From Candidatus Woesearchaeota archaeon (GTDB lineage Archaea; Nanobdellota; Nanobdellia; Woesearchaeales; GW2011-AR9): a stretch of 64,000 bases of DNA. The stretch spans positions 28,972 to 92,971 of the forward strand of contig JABHDY010000004.1 in the NCBI GenBank assembly GCA_018676855.1, given 5' to 3'. The position numbers and the translations under genes are program-made. A model generated the notes under the pieces. It saw only the letters and a list, made by a program, of their open reading frames with translations, did no database searches and had not been told where the DNA came from. Shown one piece after another: positions 17,844 through 59,059 of this stretch (the first letter of the stretch is position 1; each line of letters starts with the position of its first letter).

Positions 17844-18830
17844 ATGAGATTCGCTAGATATTTATTGAAAAGGATATTAGTTCTTACAACAATAATAATA
17901 CTTCTTTCAGTTAATTCATTGTCTGAATCTCCTCCCGTATTAACTCATTCAATGGTAGAATTTGGAGATTACAATCCTGAAACGGGAAAAGCTGGCGATT
18001 TTATATTTGATAATTCCATAGTGGATAAAGTTTTTGAAGAATTTGGTGAAGAAGCTTATGATGGATTTGGAGGAACAAAAACATTACCACATTATACATT
18101 CTTTTTGTCATTAGATGCAAGAATTTATGCGCCAACTGATGGTGAAGTGGTAATGCTTACATATCAAGAAGATTGGAACGATTATGAGATTCTTGTTGGT
18201 CCAACGTCATTAAGCGATTGGAAACTTAATTATGATCATATTAGAAATGTCCCTGGACACATTGTTGAAGGATACATGATTCAAGCAGGTGAGTATATCG
18301 GAACTCCGGGAGTTTGGTACATGGACGTAGGATTCATTGAACTTACAATAATGAAAGATCTCAATAATGGATTTAATGAAAATTATTGTCCATATGATTT
18401 TTTTACTCCTGAACTTAAAGTATCATTTTCCCAGGGTTTGAATAACTTAATGACAGATTGGGAATCTTATAATAATGATATGACTATTTACGATGAAGAA
18501 AGTTATGTGTCTCCAGGATGTTTTGAGAATACAGTTGAAGAAAAGATATTTTCCGGAGAAAGTGATGGTGCAGTAAATGATGGCGTTGAAGATACTGCAT
18601 TTGAGAGTATATATGGATGTTATGATAATGATTGTAAAATGCAAGAAATACGTGATAATTGGCCTCAACAATGTCCAATCGGACAAGTACAGATTAATAA
18701 TAATTGTATTGATACGGGATTAAGAGAAGACGATGTTGAAGGATTGTATGACGTTTTAGATGTTTGGAATGATAACCAATTAAACTTATTACAGAAAATG
18801 TCTATGGTTGCATTTATTTTAAAAGATTAA
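17844..18830 (+). CDS. Secreted protein carrying the conserved C-terminal helical motif shared with the giant surface proteins.
   Basis: The signal peptide starts at ATG 17844 (MRFARYLLKRILVLTTIIILLSVNSLSES). The track ORF starts at 17736 and would overlap the upstream gene. The C-terminus reads ...GLYDVLDVWNDNQLNLLQKMSMVAFILKD. Confidence 0.6.
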   Translation: MRFARYLLKRILVLTTIIILLSVNSLSESPPVLTHSMVEFGDYNPETGKAGDFIFDNSIVDKVFEEFGEEAYDGFGGTKTLPHYTFFLSLDARIYAPTDGEVVMLTYQEDWNDYEILVGPTSLSDWKLNYDHIRNVPGHIVEGYMIQAGEYIGTPGVWYMDVGFIELTIMKDLNNGFNENYCPYDFFTPELKVSFSQGLNNLMTDWESYNNDMTIYDEESYVSPGCFENTVEEKIFSGESDGAVNDGVEDTAFESIYGCYDNDCKMQEIRDNWPQQCPIGQVQINNNCIDTGLREDDVEGLYDVLDVWNDNQLNLLQKMSMVAFILKD

Positions 18831-21820
18831 ACAGAATGTTGCGTACCACCAAGTTCAGTGTACGCTTGTTCAATTTCTTTATCGTTCCATGTTGTTTGAT
18901 CATGTAATACTTTTTGTATACCTTCATCAGAAACGCCCATTGCTCTTTCTTTAGATATCCATTCTTTCAGTTCATCAAAGTTTGACGCACCACCACGAGA
19001 TTTGAGGAAGTGGATAACAATAAATATAATAATTACCAAGATAATGAATGCGCCGCCACCAATAATGTAATATTTGTAATCGTCCCAAATTTTTACTGTT
19101 GAAACTGGTTCCTGAACTGAAGGTTGTGTAGGTTGCACGTACGGTGGTTGCATCTGTTGCGATATTGAAGCTGGTGCTGGACCAGGAACAACCGTTTGTG
19201 AACATGATTTTGAAAGTGTTGGTTTTAACGATGTTACGCCACAACTATGTTCATCAACACACGTTCTTTGCTGTTGACCTGCACCACATGTTGACCATGC
19301 TGAACATACCCATGATTGTGTACATGCTTCACATGAACGATTTTCTATACGTTGTGTTCTTCTTCCTCTTGAATCTGTACATGTACGTACTTGTTCCAAT
19401 GATGCGTCACAATATTCCCATGTTGAACAAGCCCAACTAGAACTACGTCGAGTACTTCCGCCAGTACTTGGACTTCCACTATCTCCAGCTTCTTGTATTA
19501 CAGTTGGATCAACAGGAGGAACGCATACATTTTCTGTACATACCTCACCTTCAAGAGTACAATCAGTATCTGCTTCACACTCTTCAGGTATTTTACACAA
19601 GTTAACTACACATTCTTCTTCTGGAATTACACACTCAGCATTTGTTGAACATAAAACGTCTTCAGTACACACACTTGGTTCACCGGTACATGTCCAACCA
19701 GTTTCAAGTGTACATGTTGCTGAACAACCATCATCAGCATCTTCATTACCATCATCGCACGCTTCGCCAGTTTCTTCAACATCATTTCCGCATACTGCTT
19801 CACTTCCTGGATCAATTGATGCAATGCATGCACCATCAGAACAACCATTTTCACATAACACAGGATCTTCTAAGTAAGGACCAGTACATATTTGTAACGC
19901 AGAATCTAAATAACATGTATCTTCTGTACATGGAGATTTACATATTTCATCTACACAGACATTATTTGTATCTTCACAAGGAACTTCATCTGAACATGAT
20001 TCAGGAACAAAACAAGCAACTGCACAATCTGAATCGTCACAGTCAACGTTTCCATCACCATCATCATCTAATTCGTCATCGCAGACAGTTTCAGTTACAG
20101 GAGCAACTGAACAAATACCTGCACCATGACACGTTTCACCATCTGCACAATCTTGAGGAGTTGCTAAATATTCGTTCGTACATGCCCTTGACGCAGACGC
20201 ACCATAACATATATTTTCTTCACATGAGACTCTACATTTACCTGCAACACACGTATCTTCACCACAATCATCATCTGATGTACATTCTGTTTCTTGGAAA
20301 CAAGCAACAGCGTCAGAACAATCACTATCATCACAATCAGTAGTACCATCAAGATCATTATCAGTTTCATCATCACAGACAGATTCAAACTGAGAACATA
20401 TTCCTGCACCGTGACATGTTTCACCATCTGCACAATTTTCAGGAGCTGATAAATAATCGCCTGAACAAACGCTTGACGCCGATTCACTATAACATGCATT
20501 TGCTACGCATGGAGTAAGGCATGTTCCTAAACAAACATCTCCTGCAAGACATTCATCGTTTGATGTACATTCTGTTTCTTCGTAACAAGCTGCATCGCCA
20601 GTACAATCAGTATCTAAACAATCAATATTTCCATCATTATCATTATCAGTTTCATCGTTACATATTTCTGGTGATGGTGGAACAAGACTTTCAACACAAA
20701 ATGAATATGTTGCACAATCACTATCATCACAGTCTACCAAATCGTCATTATCATTATCTTGACCATCTTCACAATGTTCAATATTTGTAAGTCTTCGTTC
20801 TAATAATTCTACATTGCCCAAACTTCCTTCAATTTCGTCAATAAGATTTTTGTAGTCCTCTTCAGATAATTGTAATAGGTTACATTCATTCGCAATTTCT
20901 TTAAATGAATCTGCTTCTTCTCGTAACACATTTAGAAGGAAATTCTTTAACAATGCAGTTTGTGACAGTAACGAATCAATATATTTCGAATCTCGTGGAT
21001 GAATTTCAAGCTGGAACAATTTATCTTTTGATAAATCATGTTCATCTTTCAGACTGTTTAATTTAGTTTGTAATTTATCTTGGTCACATTTGTCTTCATT
21101 TACACAAACATCATTAGTAAAACAGTCTGGGTCAGCACAGTCAATTAAACTATCATCATCATTATCAATTTCATTTGTACATGTTTTTTCAACATCACGC
21201 ACAATGACAAACGTATCGCCTACTGAACGTGCAAGGTCTCGCGGATTTTCTTCAAATGAAGTAATGTTAAATTCTGTTAGTGATAAGTTATACCAACCAG
21301 GACCCGCATTTTCAACGTTTAAATTTCCTATTTCAAACGTACCACTTTGAAGATTTTGATAATCAATAGTTGCATGTTCAAATTCAACAATAGTATTTTG
21401 ACATGAAACTGTTTTAAAATCGTCTGACCACTCAAGTGAACTTGTTACAGACTCATCACAAGTGTCAGAACCTAGACCTTCATGTTCCAATATAAACCGG
21501 ACAGCTGACGTTTCATCTCCAACAACAAGGTTGGCTTTAATTGGTATAGTAGCATCATCGCCCCTATACAAAACATTATCTTCCAAAAATAAACCTACCT
21601 TTGGAAGTGATAGTGGCGTAATTTCAGCAGGCTGAATTGCTTTTCCCACAAACGTATCTGTAAAGAACAAGAACATTGAAATTGCAATAAGTAACACTAC
21701 AGTAATGATAGCAATAATGTACGGTTTCCGTATCTCTCCCCGTTCTGCAAGTGGGTGAGGTTCCCAACTATGTGGAGGAAGTTTCTTGTACCGTTTCTTT
21801 ACCGTTTTTTGTTGTATCAT
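18827..21820 (-). CDS. Giant Cys/Asp-rich type I membrane surface protein, 997 aa. It has a cohesin-like N-domain, 3 tandem ~90-aa Cys-rich modules, a Myxococcus-type Cys repeat, TSP1-like repeats, a C-terminal TM helix and a cytoplasmic tail.
   Basis: The N-terminus has a basic stretch, a TM helix and the motif FFTDTFVGKAI. Repeated CDDETDNDxDGxxDCDDSDC...CADGETCHGAGICS modules are present. A Myxococcus-type repeat reads CGNDVEETGEACDDGNEDADDGCSATC. A TSR-like segment reads CSAWSTCGAGQQQRTC. The TM helix near the C-terminus reads YYIIGGGAFIILVIIIFIVIHF. Confidence 0.8.
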   Translation of the reverse strand: MIQQKTVKKRYKKLPPHSWEPHPLAERGEIRKPYIIAIITVVLLIAISMFLFFTDTFVGKAIQPAEITPLSLPKVGLFLEDNVLYRGDDATIPIKANLVVGDETSAVRFILEHEGLGSDTCDESVTSSLEWSDDFKTVSCQNTIVEFEHATIDYQNLQSGTFEIGNLNVENAGPGWYNLSLTEFNITSFEENPRDLARSVGDTFVIVRDVEKTCTNEIDNDDDSLIDCADPDCFTNDVCVNEDKCDQDKLQTKLNSLKDEHDLSKDKLFQLEIHPRDSKYIDSLLSQTALLKNFLLNVLREEADSFKEIANECNLLQLSEEDYKNLIDEIEGSLGNVELLERRLTNIEHCEDGQDNDNDDLVDCDDSDCATYSFCVESLVPPSPEICNDETDNDNDGNIDCLDTDCTGDAACYEETECTSNDECLAGDVCLGTCLTPCVANACYSESASSVCSGDYLSAPENCADGETCHGAGICSQFESVCDDETDNDLDGTTDCDDSDCSDAVACFQETECTSDDDCGEDTCVAGKCRVSCEENICYGASASRACTNEYLATPQDCADGETCHGAGICSVAPVTETVCDDELDDDGDGNVDCDDSDCAVACFVPESCSDEVPCEDTNNVCVDEICKSPCTEDTCYLDSALQICTGPYLEDPVLCENGCSDGACIASIDPGSEAVCGNDVEETGEACDDGNEDADDGCSATCTLETGWTCTGEPSVCTEDVLCSTNAECVIPEEECVVNLCKIPEECEADTDCTLEGEVCTENVCVPPVDPTVIQEAGDSGSPSTGGSTRRSSSWACSTWEYCDASLEQVRTCTDSRGRRTQRIENRSCEACTQSWVCSAWSTCGAGQQQRTCVDEHSCGVTSLKPTLSKSCSQTVVPGPAPASISQQMQPPYVQPTQPSVQEPVSTVKIWDDYKYYIIGGGAFIILVIIIFIVIHFLKSRGGASNFDELKEWISKERAMGVSDEGIQKVLHDQTTWNDKEIEQAYTELGGTQHSV
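19840..20660 (-). repeat. Three tandem ~270-nt intragenic repeats encoding the Cys-rich CxDExDNDxDG...CADGETCHGAGICS module.
   Basis: The protein-level repeats ...CNDETDNDNDGNIDCLDTDC..., ...CDDETDNDLDGTTDCDDSDC... and ...CDDELDDDGDGNVDCDDSDC... are each followed by a near-identical CADGETCHGAGICS. Nucleotide similarity between copies is visible. Confidence 0.6.
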
Positions 21821-24393
21821 TGTTCTTGAGTTTGAGCATATTCTGAAAGATAATATGCAATCTTAGTTAATTTAATAATCATTGAATCGTCTGATTTAAG
21901 TGTTGTATACACATTTTCAAGGAATTGTTTCTGATCTGAATCTTCTACTATAAGGACTGTAAGAGTTTCTGTTCCAAGTTCAATATCTTGTAATGCCACC
22001 ATTGGCGATTCTGAACATGAAGAATAATCCGTTATGGTTGGCCAACCATCAGGACATGATTGAATTGTATCGAAAAAGTTTCCACTTCCCATATTTTCTG
22101 AAGACCCTGGTGGAAATGTTGCACTAGGAGGGCAGGAAACGTCATCATTTGTATTGTCACAAAAAGTATTCCCATCAAATGAGTTGCCTGTTGTTCGTTC
22201 AAGTTTTACACCAAACATGTTATTGATAAAATTATTTCCTTCCAATATATTGTCAATACTAATGTAATCTTCAGAACCAGGAGTACCCTCCGGCCTGTCC
22301 CATGAAATAAATGCACCGTTGATAAAACCACTGACTTTACAGTTCTTTACAGTAACTGAAGATGCAAGTTGTAAACTTATTCCAGTACCCCTTTCACCAG
22401 GACCAGTAATTGAATGGCCCTGACAATCAATGACGATATTGTCTGCATCCGGTTCAAAACATCTATTATTATCATCCAAGTCTGTAACATCCAAATCTTT
22501 TGTTACTTTGTATACTGTTCCTTCTTCCCATCCATTTCTAGGAGTACAACTATCAAGAAGAACAATTTCTGAAGATTCTAATACGAAAAATTCTTTAAGT
22601 TCAATTGAAAGTCCGTCAATCAAATCTTGTGTTCTTACACTATCTTGTAATCTTTTGTACATCCGTGCAAGAAGATAATTCTCACCTTTTTCATTATCTA
22701 TTTCAACAAAACGAGTGTATTCCCCATTAATAATTGTCCAACCATCTTCAATTTGGCAGATATCACTACATCCATCATTATTTTCAGTGTTACCATCATC
22801 ACACTGTTCTGTACCTTCACGGATACTATTCCCACATACAAATTCTTGACATGTACCTTCACGACAGCCTGACAACCCTTCACATATATTATCTGTTTTT
22901 TCAAGTTGTAACAAATCATTACATGAATATGTTACTTGTGCACTATTATCATCTGAACAATGGCTCGTTATAAAACCAGAATCAGACGTTCCATCAACAG
23001 TACGAGTATATCGTATTTGACCAGGCGTATCTGTCTCTTGACATATTGCTGGCATTTCACATTGTAAATCATATCCACAATAATATCCATCAGGACATTC
23101 AACACCGTTACATAAAGATTTCAGTTCACAACCATTTTCTATTGAATTGTCAGCATTTTCCCAACCAGTACGACACGAACAAAGGCCGTCAATTAATGTC
23201 ATATGATCACTACATGGAGTGTCGTCACACACATTTCCTTCACCATCATTATCACTATCTTCTTGAAGAATATTTTCCTGTTGAGGACAATTATCTTCTG
23301 AATCCTGAACTCCATCATTATCGCTATCAACGACACATCTTCCATTATCTATACACATTGTATCTGTAGGACATGATTCTAAATCTCCCCAGAATAGTTC
23401 GTCATCAAACGTTTTACACGTTTGAAATAATGTAATATCATCGCCTGAAACGCACCGTTTCTGAGCAAATTCTGTACACTCTTCTGTTCCGACAAATTGT
23501 GCAATGTTAAGACAAATAGCATTTTCTGTACAGTCATCATCGTTACAGTCTGTCCAACCGTCACCATCATTATCTTGGAGATCATTACATAGAATTTCAA
23601 TAACTTCTGGAACTTCTAAAGTGCACGTTGACGAACAACCATCACCATCAACTGTATTTCCATCATCACATTCTTCAAGAGCTTCTGTAACACCATTACT
23701 ACATAGTGCATCTGAAGGACCTTCTTCATCTGCAGCTGCCAAAACAGTAACAGTAGTTTCTATTGGTGAAACTAAACTTTGAGCAGAAGGATTGTTTAAA
23801 TCATACATAGTAAAGGAAGTAAACTCAAAATTTATAGGAACACTTTCGGTAGGTTCTTCATCAACCATTACAGTGATATATCCTAAATCCATTTTTCCTG
23901 AAATTGCATTTCCACAATCATTTGTTTCAGAACATAGGCCAGCAAACGTAACAGAGATAGTATCGTCAGTAGATTTAATATAATTAACAATAGTAAGATC
24001 GATACCCTCCCTTTCATAAAAGAAATTATCATGAACAGGTTCAATAATTCTAGAATAGTCAACTTTTGTTGAATCATAATCGTGTTTTAACGCAAACTGA
24101 AAAGCAACAGATTTTTTTCCTACTGGTAAAGAAACTTGAATAGGAATAGTATATTCTGTCACGCCAGGTTCAACTTCTATCGTACCGCCTAAAACTGCAG
24201 CTTTTCCAACACCAACTTCGGTAGTGAACTCGATAGCTTTTCCAACAAACGTGTCTGTGAAGAATAATAATCCCGCTAAACCTAGAAGTAAAACAACTGT
24301 AATAGCTGCTATGATTAAAGGTTTTTTATTTTTACCAGTACTTTGAGATACTGTTTTTGGGGTTCCCCGTGACACGTTCTGTTTTATTTTCAT
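21817..24393 (-). CDS. Giant secreted Cys-rich surface protein, 858 aa. It has a cohesin-like N-domain, Myxococcus-type Cys repeats, TSP type-3-like Ca-binding repeats, a parallel beta-helix and the conserved C-terminal helical motif.
   Basis: The N-terminal motif reads KKPLIIAAITVVLLLGLAGLLFFTDTFVGKAI. Myxococcus-type repeats include CDDGNTVDGDGCSSTC and CDDGNTENNDGCSDIC. The TSP3-like repeat reads DSDNDGVQDSEDNCPQ...DSDNDGEGNVCDD. The beta-helix repeats include NCKVSGFINGAFIS...GNNFINNMFGVKL...GNSFDGNTFCDN. The C-terminal motif reads ...FLENVYTTLKSDDSMIIKLTKIAYYLSEYAQ. It overlaps the downstream gene by 4 nt. Confidence 0.8.
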   Translation of the reverse strand: MKIKQNVSRGTPKTVSQSTGKNKKPLIIAAITVVLLLGLAGLLFFTDTFVGKAIEFTTEVGVGKAAVLGGTIEVEPGVTEYTIPIQVSLPVGKKSVAFQFALKHDYDSTKVDYSRIIEPVHDNFFYEREGIDLTIVNYIKSTDDTISVTFAGLCSETNDCGNAISGKMDLGYITVMVDEEPTESVPINFEFTSFTMYDLNNPSAQSLVSPIETTVTVLAAADEEGPSDALCSNGVTEALEECDDGNTVDGDGCSSTCTLEVPEVIEILCNDLQDNDGDGWTDCNDDDCTENAICLNIAQFVGTEECTEFAQKRCVSGDDITLFQTCKTFDDELFWGDLESCPTDTMCIDNGRCVVDSDNDGVQDSEDNCPQQENILQEDSDNDGEGNVCDDTPCSDHMTLIDGLCSCRTGWENADNSIENGCELKSLCNGVECPDGYYCGYDLQCEMPAICQETDTPGQIRYTRTVDGTSDSGFITSHCSDDNSAQVTYSCNDLLQLEKTDNICEGLSGCREGTCQEFVCGNSIREGTEQCDDGNTENNDGCSDICQIEDGWTIINGEYTRFVEIDNEKGENYLLARMYKRLQDSVRTQDLIDGLSIELKEFFVLESSEIVLLDSCTPRNGWEEGTVYKVTKDLDVTDLDDNNRCFEPDADNIVIDCQGHSITGPGERGTGISLQLASSVTVKNCKVSGFINGAFISWDRPEGTPGSEDYISIDNILEGNNFINNMFGVKLERTTGNSFDGNTFCDNTNDDVSCPPSATFPPGSSENMGSGNFFDTIQSCPDGWPTITDYSSCSESPMVALQDIELGTETLTVLIVEDSDQKQFLENVYTTLKSDDSMIIKLTKIAYYLSEYAQTQEQ

Positions 24394-24408
24394 TTCAAAT
24401 TATTATAA

Positions 24409-25311
24409 TTATGACCAAGTATGCTCACGCAATATTTGTGCAATTGCAGATATTTTTTGAAGGACATTATTTTCTTCCTCTTTTAAAACAGAATAAATTC
24501 TATTTAATAAATCCTGTTCGGCCACATCACCATCTTCAAATACCATTCCTAGTTTGCATACACCATCAACATTTACTTCTTTTGTTCCGCATTCAGTAGA
24601 TGTAGGTTGAGGTTCGCCTGCAGGAGGAACAACTTCTATATCTACACATTCTCCGCCAACTGCATTACATTCTTGATCAGAAGGACAACCAGTAGGAGCT
24701 ATACGTTCATTTCCTGGACACCTATTACCAGCAGTACATTCAGAAGCATCAAATGCATTACAAACAGGAGCAACTTCTATATCTACACACTGACCAACAC
24801 TACATTCTTGACCAGAAGGACAACCAGTAGCAGGAATAACAACATTATCTGGACATAGCCAGCCATCTGTACATTCAGTTACAGGTAATGCGGTACATGT
24901 TGGAGTTACAGACTCAACTTGAACCACAGGGAAAGAAGCTTCCTCTTGACCTGCTGCAGTATTAGCTTGAATTCCAGTAATTGCTAATGTAAAAGATGCA
25001 GAAGCGTCAAAGTTTAATGTTCCTGTAAATGTATCTGGAGACAAAGCAAATACTCCAATTGCAGGAGGGGACTGAGTTAAGTCACTAATATCAATAAATG
25101 GACTAAAACTTACTGAACTTAATGTTGCAGAACCAGAACTTACTGTTGCACTAAAACCTGAAATAGATGTCGTTCCAGAACTTATTTCACAAGCAACCGG
25201 ACCCCCACCATCTGGAACAGTTCCACAATTTACTGTGAAGTCGACAGCAAACGCAGAACTAACTAAAAGTAATGCAACCAACAAATAAATTTTATATCTT
25301 TTTATCATCAT
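24409..25311 (-). CDS. Secreted Cys-rich protein, 300 aa, with two tandem Cys modules and the conserved C-terminal helical motif.
   Basis: It has a classical signal peptide (MMIKRYKIYLLVALLLVSSAFA). Two ~45-aa repeats read TxCxxxxxxECTxGxxCPxN...GCPSxQEC...CVDIEV. The C-terminus reads DLLNRIYSVLKEEENNVLQKISAIAQILREHTWS. Confidence 0.7.
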   Translation of the reverse strand: MMIKRYKIYLLVALLLVSSAFAVDFTVNCGTVPDGGGPVACEISSGTTSISGFSATVSSGSATLSSVSFSPFIDISDLTQSPPAIGVFALSPDTFTGTLNFDASASFTLAITGIQANTAAGQEEASFPVVQVESVTPTCTALPVTECTDGWLCPDNVVIPATGCPSGQECSVGQCVDIEVAPVCNAFDASECTAGNRCPGNERIAPTGCPSDQECNAVGGECVDIEVVPPAGEPQPTSTECGTKEVNVDGVCKLGMVFEDGDVAEQDLLNRIYSVLKEEENNVLQKISAIAQILREHTWS

Positions 25312-25323
25312 TTTTCACCTCTA

Positions 25324-26409
25324 TTAAGAGCAACTATTTATTGTAAATCCAGGCACACCAAATGAAACACGAGCAATTAAAATAGCATCATCTAATGAAA
25401 CGGTCCCTGAACAATCAGCGTCCGAATTTGCTGAATCTTGTAGTGAATATCCAGGCACGCCAAATGAAACACGGGCAACTAAGATCGCATCAGCAAGATT
25501 TAGAGTTCCATCACCATCTGCATCACCTAATACAATATTGGATGGTGCAACATTACCACTCCAACTTGTCTGACTTCGTGCAACATCACACATTTTAAGT
25601 GGATCTTGTGGATATACATCTTGATCAGTATAACAAACACCGCCAATTAAACAAGTATTTGCATTAAGTGGATACGTACACGTTTCATCAGTACAAACAT
25701 CAGTTGTACATGACAATCCATCATTACAATCAGTATCTGCTCTACATTCTACACCAGGTTCAGGAACGTCAGGTTCAGGAACAGCAACACTTTCAACAAT
25801 AATTGTTGGACTAACAATACCCGTATCGAGAATCATATCAATAGGAGGTTGTGCAACATTATAAACATCAAATTTTGTAAATGTTAAATCATACTCACCC
25901 GTTACACTTTCCTGAAAAGTAATAGTAGCGATAGTAAATAAACCAGTTTTTTCATTTAGAGGATCAAATGTTGCTGAATCAAAACTAATTATACCATCAG
26001 CGCATGAAATATCTAATAAGTCTGTCCAACCTAAATCAGAAACTACTGAACTACTACACTCGGTTGACAAATCTAAACCATTAAGGTGAAGATCAAAAGA
26101 TACTGCAACAGTTTCAACATCAACGGGCAATTTAGCTTGTACTATAAGATCAAACTCATCATCAACAGTAACAGTATTATCTACCAAAAATATTCCTGCT
26201 GTATTATCAGTAATAGTACCTTCCAATTGAAAACTGATAGCCTTTCCTACAAACGTATCTGAGAAAAATAGTAATGAACCCAGTGCAACAAGTGCTACGA
26301 TAGTAATAATGCCAATAAGTAACGGTTTATTAACCTCTTTTTTATTTGAAACCTGATTTTGAGTTCTTTTTGAAACGTTTTTCTTCACCATTTTTATCCT
26401 CCCTCTCAA
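25324..26409 (-). CDS. Membrane-anchored surface protein, 361 aa, with a cohesin-like N-domain and a C-terminal two-repeat dockerin domain.
   Basis: The N-terminal motif reads NKPLLIGIITIVALVALGSLLFFSDTFVGKAI. The cohesin-like segment reads FLVDNTVTVDDEFDLIVQAKLPVDVETVAVSFDLHLNGLDLS. The C-terminus reads GDADGDGTLNLADAILVARVSFGVPG ... NSDADCSGTVSLDDAILIARVSFGVPG. These are two EF-hand-like DxDxDGxxNxxD loops, each followed by a helix, which is the canonical dockerin repeat architecture. Confidence 0.75.
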   Translation of the reverse strand: MRGRIKMVKKNVSKRTQNQVSNKKEVNKPLLIGIITIVALVALGSLLFFSDTFVGKAISFQLEGTITDNTAGIFLVDNTVTVDDEFDLIVQAKLPVDVETVAVSFDLHLNGLDLSTECSSSVVSDLGWTDLLDISCADGIISFDSATFDPLNEKTGLFTIATITFQESVTGEYDLTFTKFDVYNVAQPPIDMILDTGIVSPTIIVESVAVPEPDVPEPGVECRADTDCNDGLSCTTDVCTDETCTYPLNANTCLIGGVCYTDQDVYPQDPLKMCDVARSQTSWSGNVAPSNIVLGDADGDGTLNLADAILVARVSFGVPGYSLQDSANSDADCSGTVSLDDAILIARVSFGVPGFTINSCS

Positions 26410-28703
26410 TTACGTAGCACGTACGCTATCTCTGACATTTTCTGTAATAAATTATTATCATTATTCCATATAGTTACTATTTCATTTAATAAATTGGTAT
26501 TATCTTCTGATGCCCCCGTATCTACACAAACACCATTAACATATAATTCTCCAGTTACACATTCTTCAGGCCACTCTACTGTAGCTTCAGGAATAGGAGC
26601 AGGTTCTGGTTCGACAATACAAGACGTATCAGCAACACAATCACTATCAGCACAATCAACTAAACTATCACCATCATTGTCAATACTATCTGTACAAATT
26701 TCAATTGGAGACGTACCAACACAAACTCCGGCAGAACAATGATCACCAGTTGTACTTGGATCATTATCTGAACAATACAAAGCATCATTATTAGTCCATG
26801 CAGCAGTATCAGATTCAGGGTTACATTGTTGACATTGGTTAGCTGGATTAAGATTATTTCTTATCTGACAAACGCCATCTATCAAACATCGGTTTGCACT
26901 AATTGGATATGTACATGTTCCCTCTACACAAACATTATCTGTACAGGAGATACTATCATCACAATCTGTATTTGTTGTACATTCAGGAATATCTTCAGCA
27001 GGAGCAGGTTCTTCGGTTAAACATAAAGATGAACAACCGTCATTATCAATAAGATTACCATCGTCACATTCTTCATTACCATTAATAAGAGAATCACCAC
27101 AAGATTCTGCAAGTAAACAATCTCCATATCCTAAACATTCATTTCCACAGTTTTGTATACCATTATAACCATTAACTTCACAGTTTATACTACCATCATC
27201 ACAAAATTCACCTTCTTCAATTATTGAATTACCACAAACTGCAGTTGGTTCTGGTTCTGGAGGCGCAGGCTCCGGTTCTTCCTCAGGTTCAGCAGGAGGA
27301 ACTGGTTCAGGCTCCTCTTCAGGTTGAGGAGCAGAAAATAAAGGTGTACCGAACGCTAACAATTTACCTTCGTCACCGCCTGCAACATATAAAATATCAT
27401 CGTTTGCTAAAAGTGATGGTGATGTACTTGGATTATGATTAATTGTACTTGGAACACTCCAAAGAGTATTTTTCCATGGCGTACCTGGATATGTAGGCGG
27501 TCCACCTTTAAGAGCAACAACTTTATCCGTACGAGAAATGTAAATTGTACCATCTAATGCAACTAATGGAGCTGCGTAAATTGGTGTGCTAGAAGAATAA
27601 TGATAATCACTATCTGTAGGAGTAAATATTATCTGACTATGTTTTCCAGGAAGAAATGCAATAGTTCCAAAATATAATTTTTTATCAGTACCAGCAGAAG
27701 CAAGGTACAGTTTCGCAGATGTCGTAGTGGTATCAACAACAACAGCTTCAGATATAAACGATGCGCCAGGTACCATTACAGGTCCAACATTTTGGTTAGT
27801 CGGTCTTGAAATGAATAACATACCACCAGAACGTGCTTGTTCAAAAAAGTATATTTGTTCATTAACAGTTCCAATAATAACTAAATTGTAATCATTCACT
27901 CCAGCTACTGTAGAAGAATAAACTGTTATAGGTGCCACTACATTTGAATCGAGAGAGATTATATGATGAATTCCTTGAGTTCCCGCTGTAACCAAAGTCA
28001 TGTCATCTATGTTAATAGAATATAATTCTCTACTATTTGGCATTTGTACTACAAAAATGAGATAATCGCCATTACTTGAAGGAGATATTGCAGGCGTAGA
28101 AGATACAAAACCGCTCGTACCATACGCCACATCTGTATATGTAACAGGATATCCAGGAACTGGATACACATTAATTTTATGGACGCCCCTTGTTGATCCA
28201 ACAATAAATGTATCACCATACATAACAATAGATGTCGTAGGATTAATTGCCCCATGACTTAACGCTATATCAAGCGCGTCACAATTTCCTACTGCTGAAC
28301 GATCAGATAATCCAACAATCCTAACAATTCCATTTTCTAAAGGTACAAACAAATTATCTTCCTCTGCATGATGTGCAGGACTACCAATAACTTTGTCAGC
28401 ACGAATAAAACAACTGTTTATACTATCACCCGTGCTTGGGTTTATAGTATGAAGGTATGAACCCGTTTCATCATTTGTTATAAGATATGTAGCATCGCCA
28501 ACAACGAACGGTGCAATGTCTGCAGATCCAGAAGAATAAGTTTGTTCCCAAAGAAGAGTTGTATCTCCAGCGATAGGACCAACATCAATAGCCTTTCCAA
28601 AAACGCCTTCTTTAATTGATGGAAATAATACAAATAATGCAACTAACAAAACAACTGCTACTACCCCTAATATCACTACAATTTTACGACTATTAGCATT
28701 CAT
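26406..28703 (-). CDS. Giant surface protein, 765 aa. It has an N-terminal TM anchor, a beta-propeller-like repeat region, a PEPEP linker, Cys-rich Myxococcus-type and CxDxxDNDGD modules, and the conserved C-terminal helical motif.
   Basis: The anchor reads MNANSRKIVVILGVVAVVLLVALFVLFPSIKEGVFGKAI. The linker reads PEEEPEPVPPAEPEEEPEPAPPEPEP. Cys modules include CGDSLINGNEECDDGNLIDNDGCSSLC and CTDSIDNDGDSLVDCADSDC. The C-terminus reads NLLNEIVTIWNNDNNLLQKMSEIAYVLRN. Confidence 0.8.
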   Translation of the reverse strand: MNANSRKIVVILGVVAVVLLVALFVLFPSIKEGVFGKAIDVGPIAGDTTLLWEQTYSSGSADIAPFVVGDATYLITNDETGSYLHTINPSTGDSINSCFIRADKVIGSPAHHAEEDNLFVPLENGIVRIVGLSDRSAVGNCDALDIALSHGAINPTTSIVMYGDTFIVGSTRGVHKINVYPVPGYPVTYTDVAYGTSGFVSSTPAISPSSNGDYLIFVVQMPNSRELYSINIDDMTLVTAGTQGIHHIISLDSNVVAPITVYSSTVAGVNDYNLVIIGTVNEQIYFFEQARSGGMLFISRPTNQNVGPVMVPGASFISEAVVVDTTTTSAKLYLASAGTDKKLYFGTIAFLPGKHSQIIFTPTDSDYHYSSSTPIYAAPLVALDGTIYISRTDKVVALKGGPPTYPGTPWKNTLWSVPSTINHNPSTSPSLLANDDILYVAGGDEGKLLAFGTPLFSAPQPEEEPEPVPPAEPEEEPEPAPPEPEPTAVCGNSIIEEGEFCDDGSINCEVNGYNGIQNCGNECLGYGDCLLAESCGDSLINGNEECDDGNLIDNDGCSSLCLTEEPAPAEDIPECTTNTDCDDSISCTDNVCVEGTCTYPISANRCLIDGVCQIRNNLNPANQCQQCNPESDTAAWTNNDALYCSDNDPSTTGDHCSAGVCVGTSPIEICTDSIDNDGDSLVDCADSDCVADTSCIVEPEPAPIPEATVEWPEECVTGELYVNGVCVDTGASEDNTNLLNEIVTIWNNDNNLLQKMSEIAYVLRN

Positions 28704-28803
28704 TAATCTAGTTCACCTTTTTTTAGTATAAAGAATACCTTTTCGTTTATATACCTATCGATTTTCTACGTGTATAAAAAAGTTAAAAAAAAGCGGTTAA
28801 CTC

Positions 28804-29727
28804 TTAAGGAGAATACTGATTTCCTGAACCATTATTACCTTTAGAACGTGACCTAAAAAAGAACACAAGGATAAGTATTGCAACAAGTAATAAAATAATG
28901 CCGGCAACATAATACCATGTGGAAACACCTTCTGAAACGTCTTTATCGTCTTCAACTACGTCCCTCGTAGTAGAAGGAATTACTGATGGAGCAGTTCTTC
29001 CCGAAACTGTACCGCACACTTTCGTTTCTGCAGGTTGTGGAAATTGTGTAACTGAACTAATGGTTCCAGCAGACAACTGTGCATCACAATCGTCTGATCT
29101 TTGACATGAACGTGTTTGTATTTCATTTGAACATGAACTCCACGACGTACAGTCCCATACATACACACATGCAGGAAGGGTTTGCGGTTGATCAGGCAGT
29201 GTACCCGCCACGCACGTTTTCTGTTCAGTTTTTGTTAACTCATCAGTATCACATTCGTTAACATCGGTACATGTACGTGTTTGTGTTGCAGCAACACAAG
29301 ATAACCATTCGTCACAGTCCCATCGTTGATCACATGTAATGACTGATGATGAAGTACTAACGTCATGCCGCGTTACACCCCACGATTCATATTCAAGAGT
29401 ATCAATAAGTGTATCGTCAACATAAAAAGCAATGGTATTACCATCTTCACCATGTACACGAAGGTAATTAGTAACATCATTTCCGTACTTTCCCGTGCAC
29501 GGATTTGTATCGCACGTTACAATAGAAATTGATGAGGAATATTCAACACCGTTAACAGACGCAACCACATTTTCTGGAACGTCAGAATCTAAGTCCCACG
29601 TTACACGACCATAAAACTGATGATGTTCGATTGACGGTGGTTCTGCCGCAATTACCATTACGGGAACAAGAAGTGTACATAATAATATCCACAATAATAT
29701 GTTCAGTTTCATTCTACAAATACCCAA
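28804..29727 (-). CDS. Type I membrane protein, 307 aa, with thrombospondin type-1-like (WxC...WSxC...QTRxC) repeats and a C-terminal TM helix.
   Basis: The signal reads MKLNILLWILLCTLLVPVMVIAA. The repeats read CDQRWDCDEWLSCVAATQTRTCTDVNEC and CVYVWDCTSWSSCSNEIQTRSCQRSDDC. The TM helix reads YYVAGIILLLVAILILVFFF, followed by a basic/Gly tail. Confidence 0.7.
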   Translation of the reverse strand: MGICRMKLNILLWILLCTLLVPVMVIAAEPPSIEHHQFYGRVTWDLDSDVPENVVASVNGVEYSSSISIVTCDTNPCTGKYGNDVTNYLRVHGEDGNTIAFYVDDTLIDTLEYESWGVTRHDVSTSSSVITCDQRWDCDEWLSCVAATQTRTCTDVNECDTDELTKTEQKTCVAGTLPDQPQTLPACVYVWDCTSWSSCSNEIQTRSCQRSDDCDAQLSAGTISSVTQFPQPAETKVCGTVSGRTAPSVIPSTTRDVVEDDKDVSEGVSTWYYVAGIILLLVAILILVFFFRSRSKGNNGSGNQYSP

Positions 29728-34681: not shown

Positions 34682-34758
34682 TACACACTCTTTTATTGTA
34701 GAGAACTAATTTGTTTCTCTTTATATACTTTACTATTACACGAACGTAATAGAATTGA

Positions 34759-35883
34759 CTATCGTGACCGAGAAGGAGATGCAGATTCTTTCTTAAGGTA
34801 CGCAACTATAGACATTTTTTCTAACAAACTTTGTGAACTTTTTTTCCACATAGAATTTATTGAAGTGAGAAGTGTATCGTCGGTAACACGGACATCAATA
34901 CAACGCGTATTTTCTTTAATGGGTAATTTTCCAACGTCACAATTTTCAAACTTACACATTGGATCTCGTAAACATGCAACATCATCACAGTCAACTTTAC
35001 CATTACCATCATTATCTATTCTATCACCACATTTTTCAAAAACTAAACATTCAGAAGATCCCGTTACTGCCCAACAGATAGAATTTCTCACTATCTTCCG
35101 CGCATCAGTATTATACAATTCCCATTTATAATCGTCCATAAAGAATCCAAGATGAACAAACTTGCCAGGATTTCTACCAAAATCTGTAACGCCACTCTCT
35201 AACGCAAAACCTGAAATTGAGGAAGGTAATGCCCTTGACTCTGCAGTCGAACCAGAATGTGAATTTCCAGGACCAAACAACGCAACATATTCGGTTTCAT
35301 AAATGTTATTCGTATTAATGTACCCAACATAAAGAGGTTTACGAGTTGCTTGTAATCTCACTTCGTCGCTAAATTCTTTCATGATATCGTGCGTAGTATC
35401 AACTGAACCGATAGACGTTTTAAAATTGTCATCAGCGCCCACACCGTTCGTTATTTCTAAAGAACTAGAAGTATATGCACGATGCGCAACACTAATTATA
35501 GGTACACCATTATTCCTGTACGCTTCTTTAAGTATATTATCTCTTACTTTAAGTACATTTGAACATGCCAGATAATGACCAGCACAAACAACAGCACTAT
35601 ACCCATTAAATGAAGTAACTTTTCCACCACCTAATGCATACAATTCGCCGCCAACGAGGTACATACGGGTAACATCAAACCCTTCATCAACCAAATATTC
35701 TCGTATATAATCTGTATATGTACATCCCTGATTATAACAAATAAAAGCAAGATTGATTTGTCCTCCCCGTGAAACGGCCATACCAGTGACATTATTAGAA
35801 AAAGAAAAAAAGATGAAAGAGAAAGCAATAACTGTGATTGCTATACCTACAACTAACCAAATGCGGTTTCTATCAACACTCAT
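34759..35883 (-). CDS. Membrane-anchored surface protein, 374 aa, with a CxDxxDNDGxGxxDC module and the conserved C-terminal helical motif; the first gene of the cluster.
   Basis: The N-terminal TM helix reads RIWLVVGIAITVIAFSFIFFSF. The Cys module reads CGDRIDNDGNGKVDCDDVAC. The C-terminus reads TLLTSINSMWKKSSQSLLEKMSIVAYLKKE followed by an 8-aa tail. Confidence 0.7.
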   Translation of the reverse strand: MSVDRNRIWLVVGIAITVIAFSFIFFSFSNNVTGMAVSRGGQINLAFICYNQGCTYTDYIREYLVDEGFDVTRMYLVGGELYALGGGKVTSFNGYSAVVCAGHYLACSNVLKVRDNILKEAYRNNGVPIISVAHRAYTSSSLEITNGVGADDNFKTSIGSVDTTHDIMKEFSDEVRLQATRKPLYVGYINTNNIYETEYVALFGPGNSHSGSTAESRALPSSISGFALESGVTDFGRNPGKFVHLGFFMDDYKWELYNTDARKIVRNSICWAVTGSSECLVFEKCGDRIDNDGNGKVDCDDVACLRDPMCKFENCDVGKLPIKENTRCIDVRVTDDTLLTSINSMWKKSSQSLLEKMSIVAYLKKESASPSRSR

Positions 35884-41500: not shown

Positions 41501-43795
41501 ATGGTGCAAGAAAAAATATTGAAATGTTTTGACTATGAAACATATCATGAAGGAGAGAATAAAGTACTGAAAGTATCGTTAGAAAAATGTACATTTCCAC
41601 CATCGATTGAGTATAGTGGCGTATGTATGAGTAAAGTTATTGATGCGCTAATCGCAAATTCTGGCATAACAATTATCATTTTAACACAATTACGAGAATA
41701 TGAATATGATTTTGCACAAACTTCTATCCTGAACGAAATTGCTGCTGTCTACAAAAAATTAAATAGGGATGAACGACAAGCACATTCTCGTATTGTAACG
41801 GATCCACAACATGAACGGTACATACGTGGAAGTTATGCACAATTTCAACGACTTATTTCTAAACAGTTAAAGGAAGATCCACTTTCAGCGTTCGTTGAAC
41901 TGAAACGTCTTGAACGTCGAGAAAAAGCAAAATTGGACGCACTTATTGATGAACGACATTCACAAAGTCAACAAATATTTTTACAGATTATGCAAGAAGC
42001 TATCGCAATTATTGAACATACAACGCTTATCAGAACACTTATGCCACACACGCACGAGTATGATCTTGGAACGAGGCAAATATATCAAAATGTACTCAAT
42101 CCAACAACAAAACCCGATTTTATGTATACAAAAGTAATTACAGAATTTCCTGAAGGAAATTTTGAAGAAAGTTATAATTTTATGTCTGGAGAGGATACTA
42201 TTCAAGTTAACATATTTAGTTTCAATGATGAGATTAAAGTTATGTATCATATAACACCGCCAGAATTTCGTTTCACGGAAGAAGAATATGGACTTCTTGA
42301 CAATGCAAAACGTATCTTGGCAGAACATAAACCTACACGGGAAGAGTTTGTTGACCCAGAACGTATGCGTGAAGTGTTCCTTAATATTGGAAGGGATTTG
42401 TTAAAAGATTTGGTACAACATAATAATAGTATGGTAACAGATTCTAAAGTTGACCAACTTGCACATGCACTCCTTCGATACACGGTTGGGTTTGGATTAA
42501 TAGAACTGTTGTTAGCAGACCCTAAAGTTCAAGACGTTAACATTAACTCTCCAAATGGTGAGCTCCCAATATTTATTGTTCATCAAGATTATGGTGATTG
42601 TTATACGAACGTATATCCAACACATGCAGAAGTTGAAAGTTGGGCAACCAAATTACGACTTATTTCAGGACGGCCGTTAGATGAAGCTAACCCCATACTA
42701 GATACAGAACTTAAAGTTGTTGGGTTCAGTTCAAGGGTATCAACAATAACTGCTCCTTTAAGTCCAACGGGCTTAGCATTTTCGTTTAGAAGGCACAGAG
42801 ATTTTCCATGGACATTTCCATTATATTCACAATCAAAAATACGGTACATGGATTCAATGGCTGCAGGATTGTTAAGTTTTGTCATCGATAATAATGCAGC
42901 AATATTAGTTGCAGGGACACGGTCAAGCGGTAAAACGTCACTACTTGGATCGTTCTTAACAGAAATTATGCGTAAAACTCGTATAATTACAATTGAAGAT
43001 ACGTTTGAACTTCCACAAGAATCTATGCGTAAATTAGGGTATAACATTGAATCGTTAAAAGTAGCGTCTGCATTATCATCGCCGGGATCAGAAGTTGATC
43101 CGTCAATTGGTATACGGTCAACGTTACGTATGGGCGACTCCGCAATATTTGTTGGTGAGGTACGAAGTAAAGAAGCAATTGCATTATTTGAAGCAATGCG
43201 TGTTGGTGCTGCAGCGAACGTTGTTGCGGGAACCATTCATGCAGATTCTCCCTACGGCGTGTATGATAGAGTTGTTAATGATATTGGCGTACCAAAAACG
43301 TCATTTAAAGCTATTGATATTATTGTAACTACAAATCCGGTCATTTCTGGTCTTAAAAAGTATAAACGGATTCTTCGTATAACAGAAGTTCGTAAAGAAT
43401 GGGACGAAGATCCATTAAAAGAGGGAGCCTTTGTTGATTTAATGGTATATAATCCTAAAACTGATAAACTTGAAATTACTGATGAACTTAAGAACGGCAA
43501 TTCAGTTATCCTTAAACGTATGGCGGGAAAAGTGAAGGAATTTGCTGGTGATTGGAGTGCTGTCTGGGACAATATTGAATTACGGGCAAAATGTAAACAA
43601 GCAATTGTTGACATTGCAGAAGAAGAAAAGAATGATTCAATTCTTGAAGCCGATTTTGTAACTAGGGCAAACGATGTATTTCATATAATTTCTGACAGAG
43701 TGAAAGATGCAGTAGGAACGCTTGATTCTCATAGAATATTTTTTGAATATAATGATTGGATACGTAAAGAAGTAAAGAAAAGGAAGATTGAGTGA
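41501..43795 (+). CDS. Type IV pilus/archaellum-family secretion ATPase (FlaI/GspE/VirB11 superfamily) with a ~450-aa N-terminal extension.
   Basis: The Walker A motif reads AGTRSSGKTSLL. The Asp box / Walker B motif reads IITIEDTFEL. A His box-like segment reads AANVVAGTIHADSPYGV. Total length is 764 aa. Confidence 0.85.
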   Translation: MVQEKILKCFDYETYHEGENKVLKVSLEKCTFPPSIEYSGVCMSKVIDALIANSGITIIILTQLREYEYDFAQTSILNEIAAVYKKLNRDERQAHSRIVTDPQHERYIRGSYAQFQRLISKQLKEDPLSAFVELKRLERREKAKLDALIDERHSQSQQIFLQIMQEAIAIIEHTTLIRTLMPHTHEYDLGTRQIYQNVLNPTTKPDFMYTKVITEFPEGNFEESYNFMSGEDTIQVNIFSFNDEIKVMYHITPPEFRFTEEEYGLLDNAKRILAEHKPTREEFVDPERMREVFLNIGRDLLKDLVQHNNSMVTDSKVDQLAHALLRYTVGFGLIELLLADPKVQDVNINSPNGELPIFIVHQDYGDCYTNVYPTHAEVESWATKLRLISGRPLDEANPILDTELKVVGFSSRVSTITAPLSPTGLAFSFRRHRDFPWTFPLYSQSKIRYMDSMAAGLLSFVIDNNAAILVAGTRSSGKTSLLGSFLTEIMRKTRIITIEDTFELPQESMRKLGYNIESLKVASALSSPGSEVDPSIGIRSTLRMGDSAIFVGEVRSKEAIALFEAMRVGAAANVVAGTIHADSPYGVYDRVVNDIGVPKTSFKAIDIIVTTNPVISGLKKYKRILRITEVRKEWDEDPLKEGAFVDLMVYNPKTDKLEITDELKNGNSVILKRMAGKVKEFAGDWSAVWDNIELRAKCKQAIVDIAEEEKNDSILEADFVTRANDVFHIISDRVKDAVGTLDSHRIFFEYNDWIRKEVKKRKIE

Positions 43796-57842: not shown

Positions 57843-58051
57843 AGTATAGCATGTGTATATAAAGTATATAAGGGTTGTGACACAAACACAAAAATTATAA
57901 ACTATTATACTCATAAAAAGACTATTTTTTATGCTATCTCTATATATAGTTTCATGTGTCTAAATCTTTAAATAGCAGTTATCATTATGGAATTATAAAA
58001 ATTCGTATCAAATGGATTTTTGTACTTAACCATTGGGGGGTGTTATGTATT

Positions 58052-59059
58052 ATGAAAAAAGGAATCGTATTATTACTTATCGTATTTATAGTTACTATGT
58101 TTATTGCAGGATGTGTTGATTACAAAGCGTATCAAGTTCCTGAAGATGATGGATCAGAGGATTCTTTGATTGATGAAATTGCACAGATAGAAAAAGAATT
58201 GGCAATGGAACAAGATATTGAAGGAGAAGAAATGGTTGTAGAAGAAGAAATTATCCTTCCCGAATTACAAGAAGAACCTATTGCACAAGAAGCAGATAGT
58301 GATTTACAAGTTATTAATGTTAAAGAGAATGTTTTAGTAAAACTGGACGCAATCGTTACTGATCCAGATAAAGATCCAGTAACCCATACATTTTCACGAC
58401 CGCTTAACAAAAAAGGTGAGTGGCAAACACAATATGGTGATGCTGGTGAATATATAGTTACAATTACGGCAACTGATGGCAAGCTTACAACATCACGAAG
58501 AGTGAAATTAGCAGTTGAACGTGTTAATGTTGCCCCAGTTATTACAGGAATTGTAGATATGACATTAAAAGAGGGAGAATTGGTCGTATTTGAACCACAA
58601 GTTTCAGATCCAAACAACGATCCTGTTACCGTAACTGTTTCAGAACCATTAAAAGATGGACGTTTTCAAACGGACCACACAAGTTCCGGCGAATATAAAA
58701 TTAAAGTTGTTGCGAGCGATGGCGAACTTGAAACTGTCAAAACAGTTATGTTAGAAATTGTTGATGTCAATGTCCTTCCTGAAGTTAGTGGTGTAGAAGA
58801 CATTACAGTTAAAGAGGGAGAAACTGTTACAATTAAACCAGTAGTTTCTGACATTGATGGTGATGATTACGTTATAACTATTAGTGAACCTGTTGGCAAT
58901 GATGGAGTTTGGGAAACAGCATTCACGGACCATGGTGAGTATGTTATTACAGTAGTTGTAGATGATGGCAAAGATCAAGTAACAAAAAGAATCAATGTTG
59001 TTATCGGAGACATTAACATGCCACCAGAGATTGTTGACATTTCATTGGGCACACAATAA
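58052..59059 (+). CDS. Lipoprotein-like surface adhesin with 3 tandem cadherin/Ig-like (He_PIG-type) repeats.
   Basis: The start at ATG 58052 reads MKKGIVLLLIVFIVTMFIAGCVDY, with an IAGC lipobox. An acidic linker follows. The ~95-aa repeats follow the pattern DPD.D...TxTFSxPL...GxWQTxYxDAGEYxVTxTATDG. Confidence 0.65.
   Translation: MKKGIVLLLIVFIVTMFIAGCVDYKAYQVPEDDGSEDSLIDEIAQIEKELAMEQDIEGEEMVVEEEIILPELQEEPIAQEADSDLQVINVKENVLVKLDAIVTDPDKDPVTHTFSRPLNKKGEWQTQYGDAGEYIVTITATDGKLTTSRRVKLAVERVNVAPVITGIVDMTLKEGELVVFEPQVSDPNNDPVTVTVSEPLKDGRFQTDHTSSGEYKIKVVASDGELETVKTVMLEIVDVNVLPEVSGVEDITVKEGETVTIKPVVSDIDGDDYVITISEPVGNDGVWETAFTDHGEYVITVVVDDGKDQVTKRINVVIGDINMPPEIVDISLGTQ

Follow-up and report, generated by a model that had tools for sequence, protein, structure and literature searches.

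Does a hypothetical protein from a marine woesearchaeon end in a dockerin, and, if so, what could it dock with? We addressed this question for a 64-kb stretch of DNA (referred to here as the window), in which the initial annotation had pointed out a duplicated calcium-loop repeat at the C terminus of one encoded protein. Genomes are tiny in DPANN archaea, Woesearchaeota among them, and these organisms are believed to rely on direct physical contact with other cells. Their lineage-specific surface proteins are, for the most part, without predicted function (PMC8204110).

Host and target protein

The archaeal origin claimed for the window was confirmed by its ProRS, FtsZ, and IleRS, which are exact matches to NCBI proteins of Candidatus Woesearchaeota archaeon; the ProRS also contains the archaeal/eukaryotic C-terminal domain. 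A homologue (P0002) derives from a mesopelagic TARA sample, in its 0.1- to 0.22-μm size fraction, which fits an origin from ultra-small marine cells. By exact-sequence lookup, the target itself is NCBI protein MBT4935256.1 (locus tag HOL21_04765), annotated as a "hypothetical protein" of Candidatus Woesearchaeota archaeon, and its sequence is found unchanged on 28 contigs, the longest of which measures 929,840 bp. The ATG at 26391 is preceded, at a distance of ~9 nt, by a GGAGG box and is thus the likely start. The protein is probably composed, in order, of an N-terminal leader, a divergent cohesin, a Pro/Glu linker, an eight-cysteine domain, and a divergent C-terminal dockerin, corresponding to the following features:

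25324 to 26409, minus strand: ORF of the target protein, present in the ORF list as described
25327 to 26391, minus strand: target coding sequence of 355 residues, with its stop codon at 25324 to 25326 and its ATG at 26391
26326 to 26391, minus strand: basic N-terminal leader region (residues 1 to 22), read from the sequence, ending in EVNK and followed by Pro23
26263 to 26325, minus strand: sole hydrophobic segment (residues 23 to 43), PLLIGIITIVALVALGSLLFF, a signal-anchor or signal-peptide h-region located by hydropathy scan
26239 to 26253, minus strand: FVGKA motif (residues 47 to 51), a possible signal-peptidase I site suggested by family conservation
25780 to 26238, minus strand: divergent cohesin module (residues ~52 to 204)
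25753 to 25779, minus strand: Pro/Glu-rich linker PEPDVPEPG (residues 205 to 213), read from the sequence
25561 to 25752, minus strand: eight-cysteine domain (residues 214 to 277), delimited by BLASTP and cysteine positions
25327 to 25539, minus strand: dockerin module (residues 285 to 355)

The eight-cysteine domain is shared with a 765-residue neighbor (product of 26406 to 28703; BLASTP E = 6.6e-20) and with proteins of Myxococcota and other bacteria, and it matches NCBIfam LIC11073 (E = 1.3e-4). When genome contigs were scanned with the target, matches were to this domain only, in Myxococcota and Phycisphaerae MAGs.

Dockerin homology of the C-terminal tail

The initial annotation had described duplicated calcium-loop and helix repeats in the last ~70 residues, and both of the repeats that it quoted were found. 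They are 27 residues long and identical at 19 of these positions, whereas in 200 shuffled versions of the target the two most similar 27-mers had 8.5 residues in common on average and 11 at most. Different synonymous codons are used at 9 of the 19 identical positions, so the duplication is ancient and under selection rather than a recent repeat of DNA. Each repeat pairs a 12-residue EF-hand-like loop (D1, D3, D/S5, N/S9, D12) with a hydrophobic helix after it. Among the ORFs of the 64-kb window, the target alone has two of these loops at the spacing seen in dockerins, and they have the tandem arrangement of two ~22- to 27-residue F-hand segments with no entering helix. The parts of the tail are as follows:

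25447 to 25527, minus strand: repeat 1 (27 residues), GDADGDGTLNLADAILVARVSFGVPGY, read from the sequence
25489 to 25524, minus strand: candidate Ca-binding loop 1 (residues 290 to 301), DADGDGTLNLAD, aligning with dockerin loop 1 of 2ccl_B and 2y3n_B
25456 to 25494, minus strand: helix 1 (residues 300 to 312), ADAILVARVSFGV, predicted by AF2 at tail residues 24 to 34
25345 to 25425, minus strand: repeat 2 (27 residues), SDADCSGTVSLDDAILIARVSFGVPGF, read from the sequence
25387 to 25422, minus strand: candidate Ca-binding loop 2 (residues 324 to 335), DADCSGTVSLDD, in which position 4 is Cys327 and positions 5 and 9 are both Ser
25354 to 25392, minus strand: helix 3 (residues 334 to 346), DDAILIARVSFGV, predicted by AF2 at tail residues 58 to 68 and followed by PGFTINSCS, which includes Cys354

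The tail had been called a bona fide dockerin with a diagnostic architecture, and the recommended hmmsearch does not bear out those words. Pfam Dockerin_1 (PF00404) gave no match on the full-length target at an E value of ≤1. Because of this, the tail was scanned alone; the isolated 80 residues scored 15.3 bits (E = 0.024; model positions 1 to 52 of 57), which is under the Pfam gathering threshold of 22.9 bits. That the tail is a dockerin module was nevertheless upheld by structures in the PDB, a family HMM, and Pfam-positive relatives, all of which agree. Using phmmer with the whole target against the PDB, the top eight matches were all dockerin chains (2y3n_B, E = 2.7e-4; 2ccl_B, E = 5.8e-4), compared with an E value of 0.56 for calmodulin. 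In a leave-one-out design, an HMM built from the dockerin modules of eight relatives, with the target left out, recovered the target tail as its sole significant match among the 584 ORFs of the window (E = 9.7e-5). The tail was further aligned by BLASTP over 66 residues with the Pfam-positive dockerin of L012 (E = 1e-10); its homology to known dockerins is significant. In isolation, dockerin modules of five relatives exceed the Pfam cutoff (P0059, 25.8 bits; P0151, 41.2 bits; L012, 23.2 bits; L025, 38.5 bits; L010, 40.3 bits), and that of P0059 does so only as an isolated module, not in a full-length scan. As a protein-search query, the 80-residue tail returned 18 candidates and no matches, and the word index also missed the identical database protein, the query being short. 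A search with the tail profile returned two matches only, P0181 and P0182, both of which carry PF00404.

The cysteines of the tail offer a further point of comparison. Of the 12 in the target, 2 are in the cohesin, 8 are in the middle domain, and 2 (Cys327 and Cys354) are in the dockerin, a grouping that suggests an intramodule disulfide between the last two. Comparable cysteine pairs flank the dockerins of relatives, the loop-2 Cys of the target aligns with that of the L012 dockerin, and the C-terminal "SC" is kept in relatives' modules.

AlphaFold modeling, which the initial annotation had proposed, predicted the three-helix dockerin fold. AF2 modeled the isolated tail with a pLDDT of 85.1 and a pTM of 0.73, with four of five models in agreement, as a coil or loop, a helix at tail residues 24 to 34, a short helix at 45 to 48, another coil or loop, and a helix at 58 to 68, and no helix preceded loop 1. 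The alignment behind this model consisted of the target and the two homologues from the profile search, both of them Pfam dockerins, so its confidence is biased toward the dockerin fold. In a full-length AF2 run, the tail had a pLDDT of ~30 and spurious strands, which is not negative evidence because alignment depth over the tail was zero. Taken with the homology, these results lead us to conclude with high confidence that the tail is a divergent dockerin.

Cohesins in the target and its neighbors

A dockerin implies a cohesin partner, as the initial annotation had argued, and candidates turned up close by, the target itself and its two adjacent paralogues having one apiece. The N-terminal module of the target is too divergent to be recognized directly. 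In isolation it matched no Pfam family, and Pfam Cohesin (PF00963) gave no match at an E value of ≤10. Its homology to cohesins was established through its own family. A profile of the target domain and its paralogues identified 170 representatives among 1.84 billion proteins, nearly always at residues ~50 to 200. Pfam Cohesin matched 16 of 102 full-length family members and 10 of 42 isolated homologous domains (best E = 2.2e-12), the latter set matching nothing else in Pfam. Against PDB sequences, a five-sequence profile found no cohesin, and the 42-sequence family profile gave weak matches to NagJ cohesin chains 2jh2, 2o4e, and 2ozn (E = 0.04 to 0.08). Because these profile searches gave nil or weak matches, a fold comparison was needed, and it identified the β-sandwich fold of cohesins in the N-terminal domain of the target. 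Across the window, the cohesin profile recognized exactly three ORFs, i.e., the target, a 997-residue protein (18827 to 21820), and an 858-residue protein (21817 to 24393), while the dockerin profile recognized the target only. The features of the two paralogues are as follows:

21191 to 21652, minus strand: cohesin of the 997-residue paralogue (residues 57 to 210), a candidate partner (HMM, 133 bits; BLASTP to target, E = 1e-32)
19013 to 19069, minus strand: C-terminal TM helix of the 997-residue paralogue (residues 918 to 936), located by hydropathy scan and followed by a tail of ~60 residues, a candidate anchor for the assembly
23734 to 24249, minus strand: cohesin of the 858-residue paralogue (residues 49 to 220), a candidate partner (HMM, 61 bits; BLASTP to target, E = 1.7e-16)

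The leader ahead of these cohesins is strikingly conserved in the family (consensus, K.LPPHswEaHPlA..GEvnKPLIIAIItIVA...LLFFsDQFVGKAI); that of the target is without the LPPHSWE part. AF2 predicts a helix at residues 22 to 49 of the target, covering the hydrophobic segment, and at least 90% of 102 family members keep the G and the A of FVGKA. According to the -3/-1 rule, this near-invariant G-x-A may be a signal-peptidase I site. The earlier description of the target as membrane anchored can therefore be kept in part. The N-terminal hydrophobic segment exists and makes anchoring plausible, but the anchoring may not be permanent, given the possible cleavage at FVGKA. If the leaders are cleaved, the C-terminal TM helix of the 997-residue paralogue would be a natural anchor.

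Gene cluster and related loci

The target belongs to a cluster (18827 to 35883) made up solely of minus-strand genes, and between several of these the stop and start codons overlap. All of the cluster proteins start with a hydrophobic segment, and they are mosaics of cohesin, MopE/DUF4215/TSP_3-type cysteine-rich modules, and a β-helix. In the 64 kb examined, we counted three cohesins and one dockerin in this single co-directional cluster, with at most one cohesin per protein; the contig extends over 930 kb or more, and further modules of both kinds may lie on it. No GH or CBM Pfam domain was found in any scanned cluster protein, and hence the cluster does not encode a cellulosome sensu stricto. 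Of the cellulosome-like character initially ascribed to the locus, the assembly principle stands, but the cellulosomal content does not.

Dockerin genes also lie beside leader-cohesin genes in loci L009, L010, L011/L012, and L025. There are two cohesin genes and two dockerin-ending genes in L009; in L010, a protein with both cohesin and dockerin adjoins one with four dockerins. A dockerin-ending gene is immediately upstream of a cohesin gene in L011/L012, and two such genes are upstream of a cohesin gene in L025. A single protein carries two cohesins in L022.

A separate C-terminal module of ~40 residues, LLNxI...LLQKMSxIAyxLR, ends five window proteins (64 to 80 bits), among them the products of 24409 to 25311 and 26406 to 28703, at the same C-terminal position as the dockerin of the target. 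It adjoins or is fused with cohesins in L009, L016, and L022. The module had no Pfam match, and none was found in metagenome contigs with a narrower alignment profile.

A proposed surface assembly

We propose that the target serves as a minimal adaptor scaffoldin of a cell-surface assembly that is non-covalent and non-cellulosomal, a reading to which we assign, jointly with the module order given above, a probability of roughly 0.7. It builds on both folds, on the homology of the modules to dockerins and cohesins, on the archaeal origin of the DNA, and on the recurrence of cohesin genes clustered with dockerin genes in related genomes. The dockerin would fold upon binding two Ca2+ ions and would then engage a cohesin by inserting one or the other of its nearly identical helices. 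At the second loop, where position 4 is Cys and positions 5 and 9 are Ser, Ca binding is putative. Since cohesin and dockerin are in one protein, the target probably links with itself or with its neighbors. The partner could be the cohesin of another target copy, which would generate head-to-tail chains, or it could be the cohesin of the adjacent 997-residue paralogue, with its C-terminal TM anchor, or of the 858-residue paralogue. Type I dockerins use repeat positions 10, 11, 17, 18, and 22 for cohesin recognition. At these positions, the target repeats read L-A-A-R-G and L-D-A-R-G (L/L, A/D, A/A, R/R, and G/G), and because they are nearly alike, either helix could bind (dual binding mode). 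A point against the proposal is that, to our knowledge, many non-cellulosomal dockerins have no demonstrated partner. The likely role of the assembly, which would be non-cellulolytic, is to build or cross-link an adhesive layer on the surface of an ultra-small cell that probably depends on a host.

How well do other readings account for the same modules? It is highly improbable that the tail is a generic calmodulin-like EF-hand pair or a TSP3/MopE-like acidic calcium repeat instead of a dockerin. Pfam EF-hand_1 scores 15.5 bits on the tail, about the same as Dockerin_1 (15.3 bits), and a three-sequence tail profile that matches dockerins (E = 4e-11) also matches calmodulins (E of ~1e-7). The tail, however, has neither the entering helix of a canonical calmodulin-like EF-hand pair nor a Pfam EF-hand match above threshold. 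Single DNDGDGxVDCxD loops, TSP_3 modules, and MopE modules are carried by neighboring proteins, and a neighbor-type acidic loop of this kind was ruled out for the tail, those loops being single and without helices. Less improbable, though in our judgment still unlikely, is a dockerin-fold calcium-binding module that does not bind cohesin. It would act as a stabilizer or bind a host surface component, a glycan, or another protein, and the N-terminal cohesin-fold domain would have an unrelated role. Such a reading could draw on the divergence of the module (15.3 bits) and on the window having three cohesins versus one dockerin, with another C-terminal module on five neighbors. Moreover, the presence of cohesins and dockerins alone defines no function (PMC9012536), and non-cellulosomal dockerins have been proposed as adhesins themselves in ultra-small Omnitrophota (PMC10066038). 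Against it, cohesin and dockerin are paired within one protein as well as between adjacent genes, and at least four independent related loci show such pairing again, as would be expected of co-functioning modules, while both repeats are conserved at the cohesin-recognition positions of type I dockerins.

Another alternative differs from the adaptor scaffoldin in topology only. As an uncleaved type II membrane protein, the target would hold its cohesin at the membrane surface, and its dockerin would cross-link anchored neighbors in cis into a two-dimensional lattice (an S-layer substitute), with no released adaptor. The hydrophobic segment, at 21 residues, is sufficient to span the membrane, and many family members have a long, conserved, basic cytoplasmic n-region (LPPHSWEPHP...GEvNKP), the conservation of which suggests retention and function. 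We nonetheless consider this topology somewhat doubtful, given that a near-invariant G-x-A fitting the signal-peptidase I rule directly follows the hydrophobic segment and that the 997-residue paralogue combines the same leader with a C-terminal TM anchor, for which there would be no need if the leader were itself an anchor. An extension of the adaptor reading would make the cluster at 17.7 to 35.9 kb and its related loci a surface-assembly system specific to Woesearchaeota/DPANN. That system would have its own leader (LPPHSWEPHP...GEvNKP-TM-FVGKA), divergent cohesins, Cys-clasped dockerins, and a Ca-loop-free helical-hairpin C-tail serving as a second, so far undescribed docking tag for the same cohesins, and through it the ultra-small archaeon would be fastened to a host. 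In this full form, we regard the extension as decidedly unlikely.

Relation to known cohesin-dockerin systems

The target dockerin is 24 to 32% identical to type I cellulosomal dockerins (C. thermocellum Xyn10B, PDB 1ohz_B/2ccl_B; Doc918, 3ul4_B) and is under the Pfam threshold. It differs from them in the Ser residues at positions 5 and 9 and the Cys at position 4 of loop 2, in a C-terminal Cys, and in a conserved VSFGVPG after each helix, as well as in lacking enzyme cargo and belonging to an archaeal host. Archaeal non-cellulosomal cohesin-dockerin pairs have been known since Archaeoglobus fulgidus, with binding experimentally verified (PMC9012536); the target thus adds to an existing class. 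Whereas A. fulgidus is a hyperthermophilic euryarchaeon (cohesin structure 2xdh), the host here is a marine DPANN archaeon. In addition, the target cohesin comes immediately after a conserved leader specific to its lineage, its divergence puts it out of reach of Pfam, and the target system combines its modules with MopE/DUF4215-type cysteine-rich domains.

Two bacterial systems resemble the target in architecture. In the amylosome of Ruminococcus bromii, Amy4 also has a cohesin and a dockerin on one polypeptide, and its dockerin binds its own cohesin, making both self-assembly and recruitment of other dockerin proteins possible (PMC4611034). Amy4, however, is a bacterial GH13 amylase, whereas the target is without a catalytic module, and self-binding is for the target a proposal by analogy. 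Adaptor scaffoldins of complex cellulosomes (PMC4959524) likewise have one or more cohesins and, at the C terminus, a dockerin for attachment to an anchoring scaffoldin. The anchoring role could fall here to the 997-residue paralogue with its cohesin and C-terminal TM helix. In contrast to bacterial adaptor scaffoldins, which have several cohesins and link enzyme-bearing scaffoldins, the target has one cohesin and no enzymes.

Cohesin and dockerin modules are abundant in ANME archaea (PMC9012536). Like the target system, ANME archaea and Omnitrophota have non-cellulosomal modules on syntrophic or host-dependent, partly ultra-small microbes, for which a role in cell-cell interaction or adhesion has been proposed (PMC9012536, PMC10066038). 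Their partner domains differ from those of the target, with S-layer and multihaem cytochrome domains in ANME archaea and giant, dockerin-rich ORFs in Omnitrophota, and the lineages are different as well. The DPANN and Woesearchaeota genomics literature that we examined makes no mention of cohesin or dockerin modules. What is new here is the DPANN setting, a divergent leader-cohesin family that is mostly missed by Pfam, and an adaptor architecture of one cohesin and one dockerin.

The leader-cohesin family, which comprises at least 170 sequence clusters, goes largely unrecognized by Pfam, with only about one-sixth to one-quarter of the scanned members reaching Pfam Cohesin, and full-length Pfam scans miss dockerins within Asp/Cys-rich proteins, as with P0059. 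The analysis also supplies defined constructs for binding assays (one dockerin and three cohesins) and gives several "hypothetical proteins" a place in a concrete model of plug-and-socket assembly that can be tested.

Leader and architecture of the cohesin proteins

The cohesin of the target, a 355-aa protein that ends in a dockerin, is directly preceded by a lineage-specific and strongly conserved leader, whose family consensus is K.LPPHswEaHPlA..GEvnKP, then a hydrophobic segment of ~21 aa, then FVGKAI. The window holds three copies:

26239..26391, minus strand: leader of the target
21650..21820, minus strand: leader of the 997-aa cohesin paralogue
24247..24393, minus strand: leader of the 858-aa cohesin paralogue

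This leader was seen in 62 of the 151 proteins of the leader-cohesin family, with the G and A of FVGKA near-invariant. When compared with known signal types, it matched none. The cytoplasmic motif LPPHSWEPHP occurs in 53 of the 151; the 997-aa paralogue has it and the target lacks it. Because this motif is conserved, the sequences suggest that a dedicated targeting or processing factor recognizes the leader.

The 997-aa paralogue (18827..21820, minus strand) also carries a charged segment of ~100 aa (aa ~245-345; KLQTKLNSLKDEHDLSKDKLFQLE...LLERRLTNIE), probably a coiled-coil, between its cohesin and four MopE-like DNDxDGxxDCxDxDC repeats. The protein ends in a TM helix followed by a cytoplasmic tail of ~60 aa.

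Dockerins and an alternative C-terminal module

Scanned at full length, none of 102 family members matched Pfam Dockerin_1 at E ≤ 1e-3. The dockerin of the family protein P0059 (locus L009, 6813..9467) passes this model, at 25.8 bits, only when isolated. Therefore, when dockerins sit within Asp/Cys-rich proteins, scans of the whole protein systematically under-call them.

Locus L010, on a related metagenome contig, encodes the following protein:

L010 3997..6717: 906-aa protein with four dockerin modules

These modules lie behind a similar leader. Three of the four have Cys at both ends (CGD...SC); the second shows a clear Cys at its N-terminal end alone. This protein, the inverse of a scaffoldin, adjoins P0151, which combines cohesin and dockerin.

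Five proteins of the surface-protein cluster terminate instead in a conserved module of ~40 aa (HMM, 64 to 80 bits), with the pattern C(v/i)D..(D/E)D..LLNxIxxxW/LNxxxNxLLQKMSxIAYxLR, at the position that the dockerin occupies in the target:

18690..18827, plus strand: C-terminal module
21829..21963, minus strand: C-terminal module
24412..24555, minus strand: C-terminal module
26409..26543, minus strand: C-terminal module
34774..34917, minus strand: C-terminal module

It recurs weakly at C-termini in three related loci (L009 14094..15092, L016 2637..3623, and L022 4204..7932), adjoining or fused to cohesins. The module had no Pfam match, was absent from the 151 family representatives, and was not recovered by a metagenome pattern scan. 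Its probable structure is a helical hairpin that lacks Ca loops, and it could serve as an alternative docking or sorting tag.

Shared 8-Cys domain

The target and its 765-aa neighbor have in common a domain of pattern C..D.DC.D...CT.D.C....C.Y......C.I.G.C...:

25561..25752, minus strand: 8-Cys middle domain of the target
26406..28703, minus strand, aa ~551-702: 8-Cys domain of the 765-aa neighbor
Loci L001-L006: 8-Cys domain

Proteins from Myxococcota, "Deltaproteobacteria," and Phycisphaerae MAGs also carry it (33 to 56% identity over short segments), and the NCBIfam LIC11073 lipoprotein family matches it weakly. The domain may represent an extracellular module shared inter-domain.

Other surface and secretion genes

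The window also encodes the following proteins:

41501..43795, plus strand: T2SSE-family secretion ATPase, 764 aa
43855..46071, plus strand: polytopic membrane protein, 738 aa, ~9 hydrophobic segments
53866..56682, minus strand; 57956..59059, plus strand; 59103..61415, plus strand: further large surface proteins, carrying domains of the Big_3_3/Big_13, PKD, Big_9, and bacterial cadherin-like types

The ATPase and the membrane protein encoded after it, which has no Pfam match, lie 6 kb from the surface-protein cluster and may work as a pair in assembling a type IV pilus or an archaellum-like structure. Among the large surface proteins, the 938-aa member carries a TM helix at its C-terminus. The density of adhesin-like proteins in this window is unusually high for a genome in which the longest contig measures ~0.93 Mb.
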